64,000 nt of DNA from an uncultured Aliarcobacter sp. (GCA_963664305.2 CAXXLV010000001.1:416001-480000), one strand, 5' to 3'. Positions 52,015 to 64,000 are shown, numbered from the stretch's first letter. The notes: a model not told the origin generated them from the sequence alone. Made by a program: numbers and translations.

Positions 52015-52143
52015 CAAATTTTCCCCCTTGAAATAATAGTTTATTATACTCCTAAACAATTAAGACTTGACATATTAATCATTTTTTTATATCATAAATA
52101 AAATCTTTACTAGAAAATGGCTTTATCAGGGGGAAAATACAAT

Positions 52144-52767
52144 ATGAATATAAAAAATTTATTAATTATGTCTATTTATATTTCCTTATTTATGACAGGA
52201 TGTTCTTATAAAACTAGTGAAGAATCTGTTGATATGTCTACATATTATAAAAATAAAAATTCTATTCACTCAAATGCTTCTTTACAAGAAAGCGATTATC
52301 AAAAATATAAAAACTTTAAACAGCAACAACAATCAAAAAACAATTCAAAAAGTAGTATATTTGATGAATTTACAAATACAAACTATATAACTAAAAAAAC
52401 AGCTCTTAATAATGAACTATTTGATTTTTACAGTAAATGGGAAGGTGTAAGATATAAACTTGGTGGAGAATCTAAAAAAGGTATAGATTGTTCAGCATTT
52501 ATTCAAAAGGCATTTAAAGAAAAATTTGATTTAGAAATGCCAAGAACTACACTTATGCAAGCTAATGTTGGGAAATCAATTAAAAAAGATGAACTTGAGA
52601 TTGGTGATTTAGTTTTTTTCAAAACTGGTAAAACCAAGCATGTTGGTATATATATAGATAACGGTAAATTCATGCATGCATCAACTAAGACAGGTGTAAC
52701 AATCTCTGATTTAGATAATGATTATTTCAATAAAAATTATTGGAAAGCCCAAAGAATAATTGATTGA
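52144..52767 (+). CDS. NlpC/P60 peptidoglycan endopeptidase lipoprotein, copy 1
   Basis: Lipobox MTGC; YKLGG, GIDCSAF, GDLVFF, HVGIY, HAS. Confidence 0.92.
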   Translation: MNIKNLLIMSIYISLFMTGCSYKTSEESVDMSTYYKNKNSIHSNASLQESDYQKYKNFKQQQQSKNNSKSSIFDEFTNTNYITKKTALNNELFDFYSKWEGVRYKLGGESKKGIDCSAFIQKAFKEKFDLEMPRTTLMQANVGKSIKKDELEIGDLVFFKTGKTKHVGIYIDNGKFMHASTKTGVTISDLDNDYFNKNYWKAQRIID

Positions 52768-52789: not shown

Positions 52790-53440
52790 ATGATAAAAAA
52801 GTATTTAACTGTAATACCTGCTGTCTTTATATTTACTGCTTGTAGTAATAACATCCAAAATTTAGAAAATTCTTCTAACCTAAATAACAATCAAACTAAA
52901 ACTACTTTATCTTACGATGATTATGCAAAATTATATGAAACTAAAAATAAAACACAAAAAACAAGTGTTTTAACAAATTATGAAACTATATTCAATCCTA
53001 AAGAATATAAAAGTTCTAATAATAAAAACTATGAATTAGCTAATAATAAAGAAACTATAGTTTCTGAAATCCCAAAGAGAAAACAAGCTTTTAATGACTT
53101 TTATAATGAATGGAAGAATGTTAGATATAAACTTGGTGGAGAATCTAAAAAGGGTATAGATTGCTCTGCATTTACTCAAAGAATCTACAAAGACAAATTT
53201 GGGATAGAATTACCAAGAACAACTCTTACTCAAGTTAATATGGGTGTTGAAGTAAAAAAAGCAGAATTAATTCCTGGTGATTTAGTATTTTTCAAAACAA
53301 GTAAAACTGATAAGCATGTAGGAGTTTATGTAGGAAATGGAAATTTCATGCATGCATCAATTAAAGGTATCCAATTTACAAGTCTTGAAAAACCTTTTTA
53401 TAAAAAGAATTATTGGACTTCTAGAAGAATTATAGATTAA
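52790..53440 (+). CDS. NlpC/P60 peptidoglycan endopeptidase lipoprotein, copy 2
   Basis: Lipobox FTAC; YKLGG, GIDCSAF, PGDLVFF, HVGVY, HAS. Confidence 0.92.
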   Translation: MIKKYLTVIPAVFIFTACSNNIQNLENSSNLNNNQTKTTLSYDDYAKLYETKNKTQKTSVLTNYETIFNPKEYKSSNNKNYELANNKETIVSEIPKRKQAFNDFYNEWKNVRYKLGGESKKGIDCSAFTQRIYKDKFGIELPRTTLTQVNMGVEVKKAELIPGDLVFFKTSKTDKHVGVYVGNGNFMHASIKGIQFTSLEKPFYKKNYWTSRRIID

Positions 53441-57445: not shown

Positions 57446-57504
57446 TGTCATAATGTTTATGAAATAGTGAATAGTTAATATCTTTTATTAACTGTTTAAC
57501 TCAC
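57446..57504 (+). promoter_or_regulatory. Candidate Tad locus promoter and leader hairpin
   Basis: TG-T-CATAAT extended -10 at 57446-57454; ATAGTTAATA-TCTTT-TATTAACTGT inverted repeat at 57471-57495. Confidence 0.5.
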
Positions 57505-57518
57505 ATAAGAAGCATGGA

Positions 57519-57707
57519 ATGCTGAATTTTTTAAAAAGAAGATTAAAAAACCAAAAAGGTGCAATGGATAAAATCCTTGTTACGTTATTATTAGTTATCG
57601 TAGGTGTTGGTGCCGTTATTGGATTAGCTCAATGGGCAACTGACCAAAAAGACTTAGTGCAAAATTCTGCAAATACTTCTATTAGCAACGTTGTAAACGG
57701 TCAATAA
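57519..57707 (+). CDS. flp: Flp-like major pilin with atypical class III signal peptide
   Basis: 62 aa; basic leader KRRLKNQKG, long hydrophobic helix; first gene of Tad cluster, next to prepilin peptidase. Confidence 0.78.
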   Translation: MLNFLKRRLKNQKGAMDKILVTLLLVIVGVGAVIGLAQWATDQKDLVQNSANTSISNVVNGQ

Positions 57708-57738
57708 ATAAGGAAGTAGCTTTTGCTACTTCTTTATT
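57707..57738 (+). terminator. Hairpin/attenuator after pilin gene
   Basis: AATAAGGAAGTAGC-TTTT-GCTACTTCTTTATT, 14-bp stem with one G-U. Confidence 0.75.
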
Positions 57739-57751
57739 AATTTAGATTATT

Positions 57752-58189
57752 ATGTTTACAATAAGTTTTTATATATTTTCTATTATTCTCTCTTATACTG
57801 ACTATAAAAAATTTTTAGTTCCAAATAATTTATTACTTAGTATGTCAATAATGTTGATAATATTTGGTTTCTTTGAATCAAAAATATATATAAGCTCTAT
57901 TGTTTTATCGTTTTTAGTTTTAATTTTTTTCATAATTTTAATTTTATTAAAACCAACTATGATTCTTGGTGGTGGTGATATTAAATATATGATTATAATC
58001 GCATTTTATTTAGGAATAGAACCATTTGCCCTATTTCTTGTTATAACAGGAATTTTGCAAACTTTAACACTTTTATATATTCAAAATATAAAAAAAAGAA
58101 GAATTGCACCAATGGTTCCTATAATGTTTTTATCCGTAATAATTGTTGAAATTTTAATTTCACTTAATATTTATCCATTTAAGATTTAA
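57752..58189 (+). CDS. tadV: A24 prepilin peptidase (TadV/CpaA type, no methyltransferase domain)
   Basis: YTDY...VPN first Asp and GGGDIK second Asp; 145 aa, hydrophobic. Confidence 0.88.
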   Translation: MFTISFYIFSIILSYTDYKKFLVPNNLLLSMSIMLIIFGFFESKIYISSIVLSFLVLIFFIILILLKPTMILGGGDIKYMIIIAFYLGIEPFALFLVITGILQTLTLLYIQNIKKRRIAPMVPIMFLSVIIVEILISLNIYPFKI

Positions 58190-58198
58190 GGTTCTATC

Positions 58199-59242
58199 AT
58201 GAAAAAAGCACTAATTGATCAAGTAATGTTAGGTCTATTTTTATTTGTAGTATTAATTATTATTGGTGCAACTGTTAGTGATAATATGCAAGCAAGAGAT
58301 AAATACTATAATCTTAAAAAAATAACAGATAATGCCGTTTTAACCCTAGCAAAATATTATGTAAATGTTGAAGAGAATACTCTAAATGCACAAGATGTTT
58401 ATTATCAAATGTTAACAAAAACAAAACTTGGAAATGAAGTAAAAGATACTATTATCTATAATTGGGATTTTATTAGTGAACCAAATACAGTAACAGCTGA
58501 AATACCAAGCTACATTGAAAACACATTTTGGTTTAGATTATTTGGACTTAACGCATTTAATTTAAAAGCTTCTTCAAAAGCTACAATTACTATTACCGAT
58601 TTACCAACTGCAACTTCAAGTTATTCAAGTGGAATAGCACCATTTGCAGTAAATTATAGAGATTTTGTAATTGGTGATAGTTTAGATATCACATATGCTT
58701 TGACTGCTGATTGGCAATATAGTGACAAAGAGACTTTCTACCCAATATTGACCAATTGTGATTGTGACTGTGATTTTATTTTAAGTAATAAATTTGACTT
58801 CTCATCTTTAGGATTTGATGTGGATGCTTGTAATTCTTCTAGTTCAGCATGCACAAGTCATGGAGAGAGTGAATTTACACAATATTCTAATGCTTTAGAT
58901 GATATTTACAATTCTAACCAAAGTATTGATTTTGATAATGGTGTAACTTCATCTCCAATTTGTTTAATTGGAACATATTTAGGTAATACAACATCCACAT
59001 GGGGAACACAAATCAACGGATTATCTAGTGGAATTTATGATATCATTGGTAACACGGGTCAAAATTTACCTTTGGAAATGGATATAATTACTTTAGGTGA
59101 TAATGGAAAAGCAAATGGAATAGTAAGACTGAAGATTACAAGTTATGATTTTGTAACAGTTAGTAATCCAGATAACAGATATTTAACTCTGAATACAACT
59201 ATTGTTCCAGCAAAAACAAGAGAAATACATTTAGTAGATTAG
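58199..59242 (+). CDS. TadG-like minor pilin / tip protein
   Basis: N-terminal TM then 'LKKITDNAVLTLA' (TadG_N-like DxAxL), 'NTFWFRLFG..ASSKATI', 'GIAPFAV'; Tad context. Confidence 0.7.
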   Translation: MKKALIDQVMLGLFLFVVLIIIGATVSDNMQARDKYYNLKKITDNAVLTLAKYYVNVEENTLNAQDVYYQMLTKTKLGNEVKDTIIYNWDFISEPNTVTAEIPSYIENTFWFRLFGLNAFNLKASSKATITITDLPTATSSYSSGIAPFAVNYRDFVIGDSLDITYALTADWQYSDKETFYPILTNCDCDCDFILSNKFDFSSLGFDVDACNSSSSACTSHGESEFTQYSNALDDIYNSNQSIDFDNGVTSSPICLIGTYLGNTTSTWGTQINGLSSGIYDIIGNTGQNLPLEMDIITLGDNGKANGIVRLKITSYDFVTVSNPDNRYLTLNTTIVPAKTREIHLVD

Positions 59243-59250
59243 GATAAATT

Positions 59251-60843
59251 ATGAATATTCAAGAGTATCAAGAAAAAATAGAACATTCTCAAGAAAATAA
59301 ATTCTTTCAAGAAAGTATTCATGAAATGATTGAACTTTTCTGTGATTTGAGTAATCAACCTTATGTTGCATATTATAAATATGAATATGAATATAATGAC
59401 TATTTCCACCAAATTACTGTTAATAGTAATGGTGAAGAATTAAATGATGAAATAAATCATTTTGATAATTATAAATTACTACTAAAAGATAGTAAGAGAG
59501 TTTATGGTTACTTGTTAATAAAAAACAAAATTAAATACTCTTCTTTATTAAGAAAATTGCTTAAAAAAATTATAAAAAAATTAGCAAGAGAACATGAAAT
59601 AAATAAAAAATTATCACAAGGAGAAATTCCTTTTAATATCTATCTAATTCATGATGATTTAGAAACATTTGCAAATAATTTAAAAACTGGTTTGGAAAGT
59701 TTATTTAATGCAAATATTATTTATGATTCATCAATTGAAAAACATTATGAACATATTCAAACTAAAGAATCAAAAAATATCATAATTTTTTTAATAAATG
59801 ACCTAGAGTTTATAGAAAAATTTGCTGATAAACTAAAATATTTAAATGAATTAATCATAGTTATTGGACCAAATGACCATCATATTTCTATGAGTTGTGG
59901 AAAATTAGGTATCGAAGACTATATTTCAATAAATGATTTTAAAGCTGAAAATTTAAAATCAATTATTGTAAATAAAAGAAAAATCTTACTTAATAAAAAT
60001 AAATTTGGTAATAGAATTATTGCTTTAGCTGGAATTGCAGGAGGAATTGGAACAACATCAATTGCAATGAATATGTCTGATTTAATTGCTAAAAATGTTC
60101 CTGATAAAAATATTTTATATATAGATTTATCAACTACAAAAGCAATAAGTAATCTATTTTTATCAGGTGACCCTCTACCAAATAAGACAATAATTGATTT
60201 AATAAATAGTAGTGAATTTAATTTAGACAATAATCTTGAACACGGTCTTGTAAAAGTTAGAGAAAATTTTTATAGTATTACTGGAATTCAAAAACATATT
60301 GATAAAGAGTTTATTGAAAAAGATATTTTTATTCAAAAACTATTAGAGTATATTTCATCTTGCAGTGATTATTTTAACTTTGTAATTATTGATTTAGGAA
60401 TAGCAGATGCATCAAATCTAAAATCTACAATTTATGATATTGTAAATGAATTATGGATTATAACTTCAATGAATTTACCACATACTTCTCAATTAAAAAC
60501 TTTTTATTCATTGATGAAAAGAGCTGGATTAAGGGATAAAATTTCTTTTTTAGCAAATAGATTTGACTCTGAAAATACAATAAGTGTAACAGATGTTATA
60601 TCAATTTTAAATATGAGTAATGATGAAAAAGATCAATTCGAAAGATTTAAAATACCAAATGATTATAAAAGTTTAGGAAGATGTTGGAATCTTTGTGAAC
60701 TAGCATCTCAAAAAGATGTTAATTCTTTATTCATAAAAAAATTAAACTCTATTTTAGAAGAAAAAAATTTTTATAAATCAAAAATTAAAGTAACAACACA
60801 AAGTGGTTTTTTTTCAAATCTTTTTAAGAGGGATAAAAGATGA
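59251..60843 (+). CDS. TadZ/CpaE-like MinD/ParA-family protein with long N-terminal extension
   Basis: IIALAGIAGGIGTTSIAMN degenerate P-loop, LYIDL, FVIIDLG, LANR, IPND; directly upstream of tadA. Confidence 0.8.
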   Translation: MNIQEYQEKIEHSQENKFFQESIHEMIELFCDLSNQPYVAYYKYEYEYNDYFHQITVNSNGEELNDEINHFDNYKLLLKDSKRVYGYLLIKNKIKYSSLLRKLLKKIIKKLAREHEINKKLSQGEIPFNIYLIHDDLETFANNLKTGLESLFNANIIYDSSIEKHYEHIQTKESKNIIIFLINDLEFIEKFADKLKYLNELIIVIGPNDHHISMSCGKLGIEDYISINDFKAENLKSIIVNKRKILLNKNKFGNRIIALAGIAGGIGTTSIAMNMSDLIAKNVPDKNILYIDLSTTKAISNLFLSGDPLPNKTIIDLINSSEFNLDNNLEHGLVKVRENFYSITGIQKHIDKEFIEKDIFIQKLLEYISSCSDYFNFVIIDLGIADASNLKSTIYDIVNELWIITSMNLPHTSQLKTFYSLMKRAGLRDKISFLANRFDSENTISVTDVISILNMSNDEKDQFERFKIPNDYKSLGRCWNLCELASQKDVNSLFIKKLNSILEEKNFYKSKIKVTTQSGFFSNLFKRDKR

Positions 60844-62441
60844 GAAGTTTAAGAAATCTTATTGAAGAACAAGAAGAGCAAGAATATACTAAAAAGAAGG
60901 ATTTAGTAGAATTTGAAGAATTAGATAATATTGAAGAAACAAAAAATAAAATTGAAAAATATAAACAATATCAATCAAATTCTGAATTAAAATTTCCCGA
61001 AATTTATATAAATAAAGAACTATACGATTTAGCATTAAAGATAAATGATAGTTTTTTATTAAAACTTAAATCAGACCAAAAAATTACAAAAGAAAATTTA
61101 GAAGAAGTATTACCAGAATATATTTTATCTTTTAAAGAATCAAGAGCTTTAAAAAGAGAAATATTAGATGATATTAAAACTATGATTATAAACAACATTA
61201 TTGGTTTTGGTCATATTTCAACTATTTTTACAATTGCAAGAGATGGCTTAAATGATGTTATTGTAAATACAAAAGACTATATTGATATTATTTATAAAGG
61301 TAAAACTTATCAAACTCCATTTACATTTAGAAGTGAAGAAGAGTTAAGAAAAATTATCGATAAAATGCTTGCTGAAAATAATAGAAAAATCGATGAAGCT
61401 CATCCAATTATGTCAAGTAAATTAAAAGATGGTTCAAGAATTGAAGTTCAAATTCCTCCAATTGCAGCAAATGAAGGAAGTTGTATTACTATTAGAAAAT
61501 TTAACGATATTCCTTTACTAATGGAAATGCTTATTGATGGTGGGCAAATGGATTATAAAATGGCCTATTTCCTAGTAAAAGCTGCAAAAGGAAAATGTAA
61601 TATCATTGTTTCAGGAGGAACATCAAGTGGTAAGACAACTTTCTTAAATGCAATGACAAGATTCGTTGACGAAAATGAACAACTTATGGTTATTGAAGAT
61701 ACAAGAGAGATGCAACCACAAATGCCTTGTCACTCTATTAGACAATATGAAGCAAGAATGGCAAATGAAGAAGGAAAAGGTGCAATTACACTTGATTTCT
61801 TGTTACGTTCGGCTCTACGGTCAAGTCCAAGAAGGATTATTGTTGGGGAGTGTAGAGGACCTGAAATTGTTGTTATGTTAAATGCGATGAATACTGGACA
61901 TCCTGGTTCAATGACAACTGTTCATGCTGATAATACAAAAGAAGCTCTAGTTAGGATTGAGAATATGTATCTTGAAGCCAGACCTAGTGCAAATATCAAT
62001 TTTATTAGAACTCAAATTGCAAGTGCTGTTGATTTAATTATTCAGCTTGTTAGGTTTCCTGATGGTAGTAGAAAACTAATCACTGTTTCAGAGATTGAAA
62101 GAAGAATTGAAGATAACGGTGTAATCTCACTAAATCATATCTTTGAATTTAAAAGAGATACAAGTGATTTGAAAAAAACAAAAGGTGAATTTAAAGTTTT
62201 ATCTACTCCAACAAGAACAGCCGACCAAATGAATATGTTTGGAGTTGATATAGATAAAAGAGTATTTGATCCAAATTTTGAAATGCCAAAATCAATGTTA
62301 ATTGAAGCACTTGAAGATGATTTACCTTCTGTTATGTGTGGATGGAAAGATGAATTTATTGAACACTTTATCAAATCAGACCCTCAGCTTTTCCATAAAT
62401 GGCCACATTTCCAAAAAATAAGAAAGGCAAATAATGGATAA
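60840..62441 (+). CDS. tadA: Tad/CpaF assembly ATPase
   Basis: LKDGSRI, TIRKF, GGTSSGKTT, IEDTRE, RIIVGECRG, AMNTGHPGSMTTVHA. Confidence 0.95.
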   Translation: MRSLRNLIEEQEEQEYTKKKDLVEFEELDNIEETKNKIEKYKQYQSNSELKFPEIYINKELYDLALKINDSFLLKLKSDQKITKENLEEVLPEYILSFKESRALKREILDDIKTMIINNIIGFGHISTIFTIARDGLNDVIVNTKDYIDIIYKGKTYQTPFTFRSEEELRKIIDKMLAENNRKIDEAHPIMSSKLKDGSRIEVQIPPIAANEGSCITIRKFNDIPLLMEMLIDGGQMDYKMAYFLVKAAKGKCNIIVSGGTSSGKTTFLNAMTRFVDENEQLMVIEDTREMQPQMPCHSIRQYEARMANEEGKGAITLDFLLRSALRSSPRRIIVGECRGPEIVVMLNAMNTGHPGSMTTVHADNTKEALVRIENMYLEARPSANINFIRTQIASAVDLIIQLVRFPDGSRKLITVSEIERRIEDNGVISLNHIFEFKRDTSDLKKTKGEFKVLSTPTRTADQMNMFGVDIDKRVFDPNFEMPKSMLIEALEDDLPSVMCGWKDEFIEHFIKSDPQLFHKWPHFQKIRKANNG

Positions 62442-63360
62442 TTTATTTTTATTTTTTATTTTTACTATTCCTGTACTATTTGGAGTATTTGCTTTAACAA
62501 CATACTCTTTTTATTCAAAAGTAAGAAATAAAAAATATTTAATAAATTTATTATCAAGTACAAATAGTAAAATTATTGATAAAAATAAAATCGATAATTT
62601 CTCAACAAAAGATGACAATTGGCTTATCAAAAAACTAAGATTTGCAGGTTTTAATTCAAAGGGTGCAGAAGTAATTTTTATTTTAATAAGCCTTGGATTT
62701 GGATTTTTATCTGCTGCATTTGTATATTTTGTTGCAAATTCTAAAATCATATTTATCTTTTGTTTTTTAATCTTTTCTTTTTTCCCTTATTTAGTTTTAG
62801 TAAAAATCATAAAATCAAGAGAAGAAGAGTTCAATTTTAATTTAAAAGAATTAATTGACAAAGTTACAAGTATGATGAAAAGTGGTGTTGGTTTTGAACA
62901 AGCTTTAAAAAAATCAATTCTAACTTGTAAATCAAAACTTACAAAAGATATTTTTTCAATTTATATTAATGAAAAATCAATTATTGGTGAAGATAAATGT
63001 TTTGAAAAAATGTTTGATATTATTGAATCAAAAGAGTTAAGGATTTTTTATCTAACTATTTCAATAGGAAGAAAATCTGGAGGTAAATTTTCTAATACAT
63101 TAGAAAAATTAAGAAAAACATTACATGACCAAGGTGAAATTAAACAAGAAATCACTTCATCAACAAAAGAGATAAAAATTGGAACTTACTTTATTATAGG
63201 TATTACAGTTTTTATTTATATTATGTTGAATCAAGCACTAAATAATGTACTTAATCAACATTTTTTTGGTAGTGATACAGGGAAACTTCAAATGTTTTTT
63301 ATTGTTGTTTGGGTTTCATTTGGTATATTTGTAAATAGCTTATTAACAAAGATTAAATAA
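62434..63360 (+). CDS. tadB: TadB inner-membrane platform protein (T2SS F family)
   Basis: N-terminal TMs, MKSGVGFEQAL, SGGKFSNTLEKL; follows tadA. Confidence 0.85.
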   Translation: MDNLFLFFIFTIPVLFGVFALTTYSFYSKVRNKKYLINLLSSTNSKIIDKNKIDNFSTKDDNWLIKKLRFAGFNSKGAEVIFILISLGFGFLSAAFVYFVANSKIIFIFCFLIFSFFPYLVLVKIIKSREEEFNFNLKELIDKVTSMMKSGVGFEQALKKSILTCKSKLTKDIFSIYINEKSIIGEDKCFEKMFDIIESKELRIFYLTISIGRKSGGKFSNTLEKLRKTLHDQGEIKQEITSSTKEIKIGTYFIIGITVFIYIMLNQALNNVLNQHFFGSDTGKLQMFFIVVWVSFGIFVNSLLTKIK

Positions 63361-64000
63361 TGGAAAAATCACTTTTACTACTAATATTAGCACCTGTTGT
63401 ATTAGCCTTTATTTTCCTAATTACACTTGTTTTCCTTGAAAAAAGAAAACAACAAAAAAGTATTATTCTTCTTTCAAAAATGGATAATAAAGCAATTATT
63501 GACCAACAAAGAACAAAGAAAAAAGACAGCACTGGTCTTACTATGAAATTAATTCAATCTGGAATTACTTATAAAGAGTATACGGAAGCTAGATTAGTTT
63601 TTGCAATAATTGGTTTAATACTTATGTGTACATTACCTTTCTTTTTTTCAATCACAGTTGGAATAATAAGTGTGGCTGTTGGGATTTTATGTATTGTTTT
63701 TGGTGGAGATATGTATTTAAGTATCTCGAAATCTGAAAGAATTGAAAAAATCAACAATGACTTAGGTGTTTTTTTGGATTTAGTAAATGTTATTTTAGAA
63801 GCTGGAGGAAGTTTAAAAAATGCATTTTTTGAAGTTTCAAAAAGAGGTGTTGGGATAATTGACCAAGAATTATTAAAAGAAATTGCAATTTTAGAATATG
63901 AAATGACAAATTACTCTTCAAAAGTTGCATATGAAAATCTAAAAAATAGAATTGATAGTAGAGAAGTTGATAAGATAGTTGATTTCTTGATTTTAAGTGA
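63360..64000 (+). CDS. tadC: TadC inner-membrane platform protein, runs off window end
   Basis: ATG 63360 overlaps tadB stop; open frame MEKSLLL...DLGVFLDLVNVILEAGGSLKNAF...; no stop in window. Confidence 0.85.
   Translation, partial: MEKSLLLLILAPVVLAFIFLITLVFLEKRKQQKSIILLSKMDNKAIIDQQRTKKKDSTGLTMKLIQSGITYKEYTEARLVFAIIGLILMCTLPFFFSITVGIISVAVGILCIVFGGDMYLSISKSERIEKINNDLGVFLDLVNVILEAGGSLKNAFFEVSKRGVGIIDQELLKEIAILEYEMTNYSSKVAYENLKNRIDSREVDKIVDFLILS

Follow-up and report, generated by a model that had tools for sequence, protein, structure and literature searches.

Which protein forms the fibre of a tight adherence (Tad) system whose locus holds no recognisable flp gene? This question is raised by a 64,000-nucleotide stretch of DNA from an uncultured Aliarcobacter sp. 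(GCA_963664305.2 CAXXLV010000001.1:416001-480000), referred to here as the window and numbered from its first letter. At the head of the locus, as in all 30 related loci compared, lies an open reading frame (ORF) for a 62-residue protein of a conserved family (57519..57707, plus strand), which probably encodes the major pilin, in precursor form, of a divergent Tad (type IVc) pilus occurring in about one third of Arcobacteraceae genomes. The existence of a distinct and unannotated pilin class within the Tad system is well supported. Its N-terminal signature, [GA]/x-hydrophobic-[DE] (a slash marks the predicted cut), is real, conserved and specific to the locus. The source genome has 2.78 Mb, a G+C content of about 27% and a completeness of 99.96%, and the named relatives of the window proteins belong to Arcobacter, Halarcobacter and Aliarcobacter.

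The N-terminus of the 62-residue protein and its family

The protein reads MLNFLKRRLKNQKG followed, across the predicted cut, by AMDKILVTLLLVIVGVG: a basic leader of 14 residues, MLNFLKRRLKNQKG (Met1-Gly14, codons 57519..57560), and then AMDKILVTLLLVIVGVGAVIGL. The mature form would have 48 residues, or 47 if the cut fell after Ala15. Asp stands at +3 and Ile at +5, and both Glu+5 and Tyr+6 are absent. This numbering presumes a cut right after Gly14, and after Ala4 in the 347-residue protein described below, and "Asp+3" should be read as the residue three past the conserved G or A. The initial annotation had reported Asp at +3, a hydrophobic residue at +5 and no Glu+5 for the ORFs at 57519-57707 and 58199-59242, and both N-termini are as it described.

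Homologues of the pilin were counted over the best 120 of 325 relatives at E<=10. The predicted processing site, Gly14-Ala15-Met16-Asp17 (GGT GCA ATG GAT, 57558..57569), is invariant in all 120, which also bears out the expected conservation of Asp+3, and the leader has 14 residues in 117. Lys occupies +4 in 115 of them; +5 holds Ile in 118 and Val and Leu in one each, +6 is either Leu or Ile, and Val7, Thr8, Leu9, Leu10, Gly15 and Trp25 are invariant. The leader follows the pattern MLxFLKRRLKxxKG with its key residues unchanged, and a hydrophobic stretch extends thereafter to about +22. The C-terminal tail is variable and often rich in Ser and Thr, set against the invariant N-terminus. A combination of E+5 and Y+6, which the initial annotation had named as telling against a separate class, occurs neither in these 120 relatives nor in 107 more distant representatives. 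The AlphaFold2 (AF2) model consists of one continuous helix over residues 2-59, with a predicted local distance difference test score (pLDDT) of 93.

Over 184 Arcobacteraceae genomes from 22 genera, the pilin is present in 62 genomes and 14 genera, and the gene for a 141-residue companion protein in 61 genomes and 14 genera, 13 of them the same as those of the pilin. Tandem extra copies occur in many genomes, often as two or three copies. The family is small, with 107 representatives matched at E<=0.001 when the pilin profile was searched against 1.84 billion cluster representatives, and every family sequence with a source name or on a contig of a named genome comes from Campylobacterota. Most of the 120 homologues are unnamed or called "hypothetical protein"; four are called Flp pilin, and a few carry unrelated names (FliL; regulator of RcsB stress response).

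A signature shared with two larger proteins

The second protein with the signature is encoded by the ORF at 58199-59242 (plus strand, 347 residues) and reads MKKA followed by LIDQVMLGLFLFVVLIIIG (MKKA/LIDQ), with Asp at +3, Ile or Val at +5 and neither Glu+5 nor Tyr+6. All 67 homologues carry A-(F/I/L)-(I/V)-D-Q, so that the conservation of Asp+3 extends to this protein, and two more orthologues in the genome loci read KKA/VIEQ and KKRA/FVDKILL. The leaders of the homologues vary from 3 to about 17 residues, some being extended in front of a K-K-A that stays the same, and thus resemble a cleaved signal peptide. The AF2 model (pLDDT 85) predicts a long N-terminal helix of 55 residues (2-56) followed by a mixed alpha/beta domain, which is the general layout of a pilin. 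This protein is a candidate minor or tip pilin; its description as "TadG-like" in the initial annotation can stand as an analogy, since no Pfam family is matched.

The third, a pilin-like ORF of 141 residues, lies just past the window end (genome C1:481410-481835) and begins MNNKTMKKA/FIDQIILWIVLF (MKKA/FIDQ). Across 30 related loci it always shows [AG]/x-x-[DE]-[QN], with 27 A and 3 G at -1 and 21 D and 9 E at +3, and thereby widens the conservation of the +3 acid beyond the two proteins for which it had been proposed. Its family alternates KKA/VIDQ with KKG/AIDQ (3 loci), the same register as KG/AMDK in the pilin. Glu+5 is absent from all three proteins and from their homologues, and D or E stands at +3 instead. 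A six-frame scan of the 2.78-Mb genome with the pattern [KRN][GA]-x-hydrophobic-[DE]-polar, followed by 14-16 uncharged residues, returned exactly three sites, namely the pilin, the 347-residue and the 141-residue proteins. Neither TadE (PF07811) nor Tad (PF13400) profiles match the two larger proteins at E<=1.

Proposed assignment as a pilin subunit

No match to PF04964, PF04021 or PF16982 was found in the window pilin at E<=1, a survey of 80 diverse family members lists 25 families without any of these three models, each of which is thus matched by at most one member, and NCBIfam gives no match for the pilin. In the whole genome PF04964 has 0 matches at E<=10, the positive control being detected in Caulobacter, and no flp-like ORF lies in the remainder of the locus. 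Of 401 genomes sampled across the phylum, 8 carry the canonical form KG/VTAIEY, but none of the 23 from Arcobacteraceae does. The prediction that such a class would be missed by Flp models was therefore correct, and the canonical flp gene that could have spoken against it does not appear elsewhere in the genome.

Several results weigh against the assignment. The 62-residue protein is recognised by no model of any pilin family in Pfam or NCBIfam, and hhalign gives a probability of 1% when the pilin family is compared with 8 canonical Flp of the phylum, a value that may leave distant Flp homology possible, since the proteins are short and helical. Foldseek finds no match in the PDB for the model of the 347-residue protein at E<=0.001, and in a wide VIA-align comparison of this model the best Z (7.7) goes to unrelated inositol monophosphatase-like chains; type IV pilins and pseudopilins make up 11 of 50 rows, with Z of 4.3-6.2, within the range of common arrangements. 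In addition, the TadZ-like and TadC-like identities in the locus depend on sub-threshold matches, and what is said here of cleavage, filament and expression is derived from the comparison of sequences. Homology to Flp is not demonstrable and, thus, the assignment as a pilin rests on context and N-terminal architecture.

The protein could also be a small single-pass membrane protein, uncleaved or regulatory, with a larger pilin-like protein forming the fibre. This would explain why no pilin model matches it and why leaderless paralogues and orphan copies sit away from the tad locus, and it has a parallel in some Gram-positive tad loci without a Flp-type gene, for which TadE-like subunits are proposed in part of one study (PMC3244431). 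However, the basic leader with its invariant K-G is the signature of the other two proteins, the length is Flp-like with a single helix, the gene is the first of the locus with a hairpin behind it and strictly adjacent to the peptidase gene, and tandem duplication together with a variable tail is typical of major pilins, all of which makes a non-subunit role quite improbable.

The literature on Tad, Flp and tight adherence in Arcobacter and Campylobacterota, and on Glu5-less Tad pilins, does not describe this pilin class as far as it was searched; a Tad pilus is merely mentioned for a Sulfurospirillum epibiont in a passage of PMC10470745.

Translation start and upstream region

The leader amino acids are kept while their codons vary (F4 TTT/TTC; L9 TTA/CTG/CTT/CTA; S11 AGT/TCA/TCT), and of 29 related loci 28 have GGAG or AAGGA in front of their first ATG, while the window copy has only AAGAAG. 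The conserved leader and the upstream ribosome-binding sites indicate translation from 57519, and a start at this first ATG is well supported by the comparison. The initial annotation had also raised a start at the internal ATG at 57564, with the "leader" as untranslated 5' sequence. The Lys-Gly codons (AAAGGTG) do form a Shine-Dalgarno-like word 5-8 nucleotides ahead of that ATG, Met16 is invariant, and genuine leaderless paralogues exist. Nevertheless, the amino acids of the 14-residue leader are kept across both synonymous and six-fold changes of codon, the ribosome-binding sites precede the first ATG in nearly all loci, and the leader is retained in divergent members of the family, so that 57564 as the sole start is already largely refuted and would be very surprising. 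The Lys-Gly-Ala codons AAAGGTGCA (57555-57566) ahead of Met16 resemble a ribosome-binding site in nearly all orthologues, and a minor internal start at Met16 may yield a leaderless product from the main pilin gene.

Further upstream, TGTCATAAT at 57446-57454, behind a T-rich stretch and 65 nucleotides ahead of the pilin ATG, resembles an extended -10 element, with transcription predicted to begin a few bases past it; it is not listed in a consensus promoter scan. Six of 29 related loci have the same nonamer ahead of their pilin ATG, and in four of the six it sits within the palindrome TGTCATAATGTGACA, a possible operator. In four sequencing runs with a guessed RNA label, contigs of all four cover the pilin ORF, and two contigs of 230 nucleotides (X3 and X9, from two studies) span 57473/4-57701/2, at most a weak hint at a short transcript of the pilin gene; neither observation was used as evidence.

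Predicted cleavage site and leaderless paralogues

A cut after Gly14 is favoured over a cut after Ala15 by the sequences compared. If the peptidase cut the pilin after Ala15 (K-G-A/M-D-K), the mature protein would begin with Met and have its acid at +2, and Asp+3 would be a property of the larger proteins only. Two observations in particular favour this register over the preferred one. Five checked leaderless paralogues start exactly at the equivalent of Met16, and the weak alignment with the archaeal Iho670 filament places Met16 at mature residue 1. The paralogues read MEKILV, MDRILI, MDKILVS and, twice, MDRILVT, with an in-frame stop 6-14 codons upstream, no G or A at -1 and, in three of them, an AGGAG or AAGGA of their own; they lie in loci L004 (1733-1877, plus strand), L006 (minus strand, after the main pilin), L091, L092 and L093, the last two being orphans far from the tad locus. 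Moreover, 28 of the 107 family representatives are called without a leader, and in the 79 that bear one Gly14 is mostly followed by a small residue (A 49, S 9, G 5) and then by a hydrophobic one (M 48, I 17, V 6), which fits the expectation for -1/+1; the Sulfurimonas type has Gly directly followed by M, L or I.

However, the constant spacing of K-A/V-I-D-Q and K-G/A-I-D-Q in the 141-residue family places G or A three residues before the acid in all substrates, and in the larger proteins a cut in the alternative register would leave L, F or I at -1. The canonical Flp of the phylum reads KG/V, and according to PMC3244431 the cut normally follows G and precedes a small or hydrophobic residue. 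A cut after Ala15 is accordingly unlikely, if far from negligible, and Gly14 is taken as the last leader residue in what follows. The leaderless paralogues may be pilin-like subunits that need no peptidase.

The acidic residue and the Sulfurimonas type

At the profile position of Asp17, 87 of the 107 representatives are acidic (D 74, E 13), 17 represent an acid-free type, G-[MIL]-[SN]-G, and in the remaining 3 the acid is absent in another sequence context or the position is unaligned. The idea of an Asp+3 class thus stood in part: the acid is invariant in the Arcobacteraceae homologues, and it is not universal in the wider family, as Sulfurimonas has none. The acid-free type belongs to Sulfurimonas and other Campylobacterales (loci L069-L088). 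Its pilin, KG/MSGVLVALLL, is one residue shorter after Gly, and its gene follows a secretin-like ORF in 3 of 3 loci examined upstream. One such cluster (L071, 58-5204) encodes, according to Pfam, two T2SSF proteins, a SAF-domain protein and a secretin with pil_N, and the TadC counterpart passes T2SSF at 2.7e-7. The small pseudopilin of Sulfurimonas, G/LGQI, likewise lacks the acid and is one residue shorter. A profile of this pilin type gives nothing significant against the PDB, the best match being a dynein light chain (E 0.064), which is attributed to chance. The N-termini of pilin and pseudopilin therefore change together between lineages, and no other observation speaks as strongly, if indirectly, for a single machine that reads both.

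The absence of the acid from the Sulfurimonas type counts against equating it with Glu5, since the acid is then not essential in the wider family. Instead of a stand-in for Glu5 in packing, it could be a determinant of recognition by the peptidase or platform, or of topology, or a lineage feature that can be lost. This alternative has a considerable chance of being right, albeit below even. The Sulfurimonas pilin and pseudopilin are acid-free and yet belong to a Tad-like locus, and within each lineage the N-termini of both co-vary. Furthermore, PMC10710030 describes the Glu5 of the Caulobacter Tad pilus as facing the surface of the filament and forming no salt bridge between subunits, and therefore a Glu5-less Tad pilin is structurally plausible. 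Against it stand the Arcobacteraceae conservation (D in all 120 homologues) and the restriction to conservative D/E exchange in the 87 acidic representatives and in the two larger proteins. Such conservation argues for strong selection on the acid, whatever its role.

The source genome of the window also encodes a PilD-type peptidase of 266 residues (PF06750 A24_N_bact and Peptidase_A24) and one canonical pseudopilin, KTA/FSLLELIFAIVILG (KTA/FSLLE, with Phe+1 and Glu+5), the pair being placed at C1:553012-553362 (minus strand; L089 1381-2181) and C2:1223366 (minus strand). Thus, two sets of peptidase and substrates with different N-terminal rules, PilD-type and TadV-like, would exist in one cell.

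Organisation of the locus

The genes from the pilin to the secretin form one co-directional cluster with the pilin at its head. A terminator-like hairpin (57707..57738, plus strand) with a 14-bp stem follows directly after the pilin stop codon; its RNA fold has -18.3 kcal/mol and z -5.65, with 0 of 200 shuffles as good, and it is likely an attenuator between the pilin and the machinery genes. Next comes a TadV/CpaA-like prepilin peptidase of 145 residues (57752..58189, plus strand), for which PF01478 (2.5e-12) is the sole family reported at E<=1 and the methyltransferase (A24_N) domain is absent; its candidate catalytic residues, read from sequence motifs, are Asp17 (SYTD) and Asp76 (GGGD). 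In each of 30 related loci the pilin gene is directly followed by an ORF with GGGD[IVL]K (A24), in agreement with the methylase-less neighbouring peptidase to which the initial annotation had assigned the processing.

The large pilin-like gene (58199..59242) is followed, on the same strand, by a ParA/MinD-type protein of 530 residues (59251..60843), called TadZ-like by its position in the locus and with matches to AAA_31 (2.6e-4, weak) and BcsQ, all below curated cut-offs, and by a TadA/CpaF-type assembly ATPase of 533 residues (60840..62441; T2SSE 4.4e-45) that scores 231 bits against Caulobacter CpaF structures and 112 bits against archaeal FlaI. The TadB-like platform protein (62434..63360, plus strand, 308 residues) has one T2SSF domain (PF00482 3.6e-8, over the cut-off), and the TadC-like platform protein (279 residues, plus strand) starts at 63360 and runs past the window end at 64000 (genome C1:479360-480199); the 213 residues within the window match NCBIfam UpsF at 2.2e-7, far below the curated cut-off. 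Beyond the window, the same cluster continues with a protein of 399 residues in the CpaB/RcpC position, CpaB-like with a weak SAF match (E 0.066), and a secretin (PF00263 1.1e-28; T2SS-T3SS_pil_N, or pil_N, 6.7e-4). The A24 peptidase, the CpaF-type ATPase, the platform, the CpaB-like protein and the secretin make this a probably complete bacterial Tad (type IVc) locus.

Elsewhere in the window, at 52117-52767 and 52790-53440, two adjacent paralogous ORFs of 216 residues have lipoprotein-like N-termini and share a conserved C-terminal half; they may be NlpC/P60-type cell-wall hydrolases.

Proposed mechanism

The prepilin would be inserted into the inner membrane so that its basic leader of 14 residues stays on the cytoplasmic side. 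The TadV-like aspartyl peptidase encoded by the adjacent gene would strip the leader, most likely after Gly14, and leave a 48-residue single-helix pilin beginning A-M-D-K-I-L-V; the same enzyme would cut the 347-residue and 141-residue proteins at K-A/hydrophobic-hydrophobic-[DE]-Q. Leader removal by this peptidase is suggested by the shared motif, the adjacency of the genes and the specificity of the signature for the locus. Judging by family membership, the CpaF-type ATPase, the TadB and TadC platform, and the TadZ-like, CpaB-like and secretin proteins would build the fibre from the pilin and export it across the outer membrane. By analogy, the 347-residue and 141-residue proteins would be minor pilins in the parts of TadE, TadF and TadG, priming or capping the fibre. 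The roles of TadE and TadF, and their processing, with TadV, were reportedly treated by Tomich and co-workers in 2006.

The +3 acid would be the counterpart in this lineage of the Glu+5 of canonical Flp, TadE and TadF, and it could serve in recognition, in drawing the subunit out of the membrane or in pairing with the charge of the N-terminal amine. Since it co-varies in all three substrates, a shared machine, be it the peptidase, the platform or the neighbouring subunits, probably reads it. The identity of the major subunit, the cleavage and its bond, the assembly and a Glu5-like role of Asp+3 are what we infer from sequence.

Significance of an altered N-terminal rule

According to PMC10710030, the conservation of Glu5 is absolute among bacterial type IV pilins, and Tyr6 is conserved throughout the Tad pilins. 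The present locus would be an exception to this rule, namely, a Gram-negative Tad system with a putative major pilin and two putative minor pilins that share another, co-evolving signature. Pilin-finding tools and profiles are built on Glu5 and Tyr6 and, with the homologues unnamed or misnamed, a Tad locus in Arcobacteraceae, a family with members from wastewater and others associated with animals, would be scored as pilin-less. The family also offers a natural experiment on the N-terminal acid, which may help the peptidase to recognise its substrates, allow the platform to extract the subunits or neutralise charge within the core of the fibre. The solved Caulobacter Tad pilus (PDB 8U1K), in which Glu5 contacts no other subunit, does not decide between these roles.

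The leaderless paralogues raise the possibility of a type IV filament subunit that dispenses with the peptidase and, if this is true, they would be the first peptidase-independent type IV pilin subunits. In a wider scenario, which is speculative and rather unlikely to hold as a whole, a Tad lineage of Campylobacterota would have abandoned Glu5, with Arcobacteraceae using the +3 acid and Sulfurimonas none, as in many archaeal pilins; the leaderless paralogues would enter the filament peptidase-free, and the early acid would be ancestral to Tad and Epd, the Glu5-Tyr6 of Flp being derived.

Comparison with known systems

The closest parallel is the Flp/Tad system (Flp1-TadV-TadE/F/G in Aggregatibacter; PilA and CpaA-F in Caulobacter), with which the present locus appears to share the gene set with a small pilin first, and does share a pilin of about 48 residues predicted as a single helix without a globular domain, and extra pilin-like proteins that carry the processing motif of the pilin. 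Unlike Flp, however, the present pilin lacks Thr2, Glu5, Tyr6 and Gly7, besides any PF04964 match, and an acid stands at +3 in the pilin and in both larger proteins, which match neither TadE (PF07811) nor other Pfam models. The gene order also differs, with the large pilin-like gene between the peptidase and tadZ, and leaderless pilin paralogues set this family apart.

The Sulfurimonas type belongs to the same profile family and resembles the present pilin in leader length, hydrophobic core and the link to a Tad-like locus; in contrast, its gene lies after the secretin and not before the peptidase. The Gram-positive "Flp-like" pilins (Imam et al. 2011, PMC3244431) are likewise small, Tad-linked and divergent from the Flp consensus. 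In part of that study they are described as lacking Tyr6 with E or D at +5 as the rule, and some tad loci as having no recognisable flp. Unlike the present locus, they occur in monoderms, without a secretin, and no sequence relation to the present family was found among its 107 representatives, the named ones being all Campylobacterota. In the ESM Atlas, only the family's own Campylobacterota clusters score at least 0.9; Bacillota (0.89), PF04021 (0.86; a cluster, 38% of members) and PF16982 (0.85) are leads only.

The archaeal class III pilins (Epd-type mini-pilins, Iho670) also have a short basic leader ending in K-G or K-A and no conserved Glu5, and the PDB sequence that the pilin profile matches best is that of the Ignicoccus Iho670 filament (E 0.008, borderline; ILVTLLLVIVGVGAVVGLSTW versus VIATLLLILIAVAAAVLLYTW). 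The initial annotation had seen in K-[GA] an archaeal-style processing site. This motif does not discriminate, because K-G at -2/-1 is also the canonical Flp site, and Flp of the same phylum reads KG/VTAIEY. The archaeal flavour is weak in other respects too: unlike archaeal pili, the machinery is that of a bacterial Tad system with a secretin, the ATPase scores higher against CpaF than against FlaI, PF04021 has no match at E<=1, and Iho670 is the sole link. Tad is itself held to derive from archaeal Epd-like pili in a passage of PMC6668835. The present locus is read here as part of a bacterial Tad lineage that has diverged and loosened or changed its N-terminal rules, rather than as a separate archaeal transfer.

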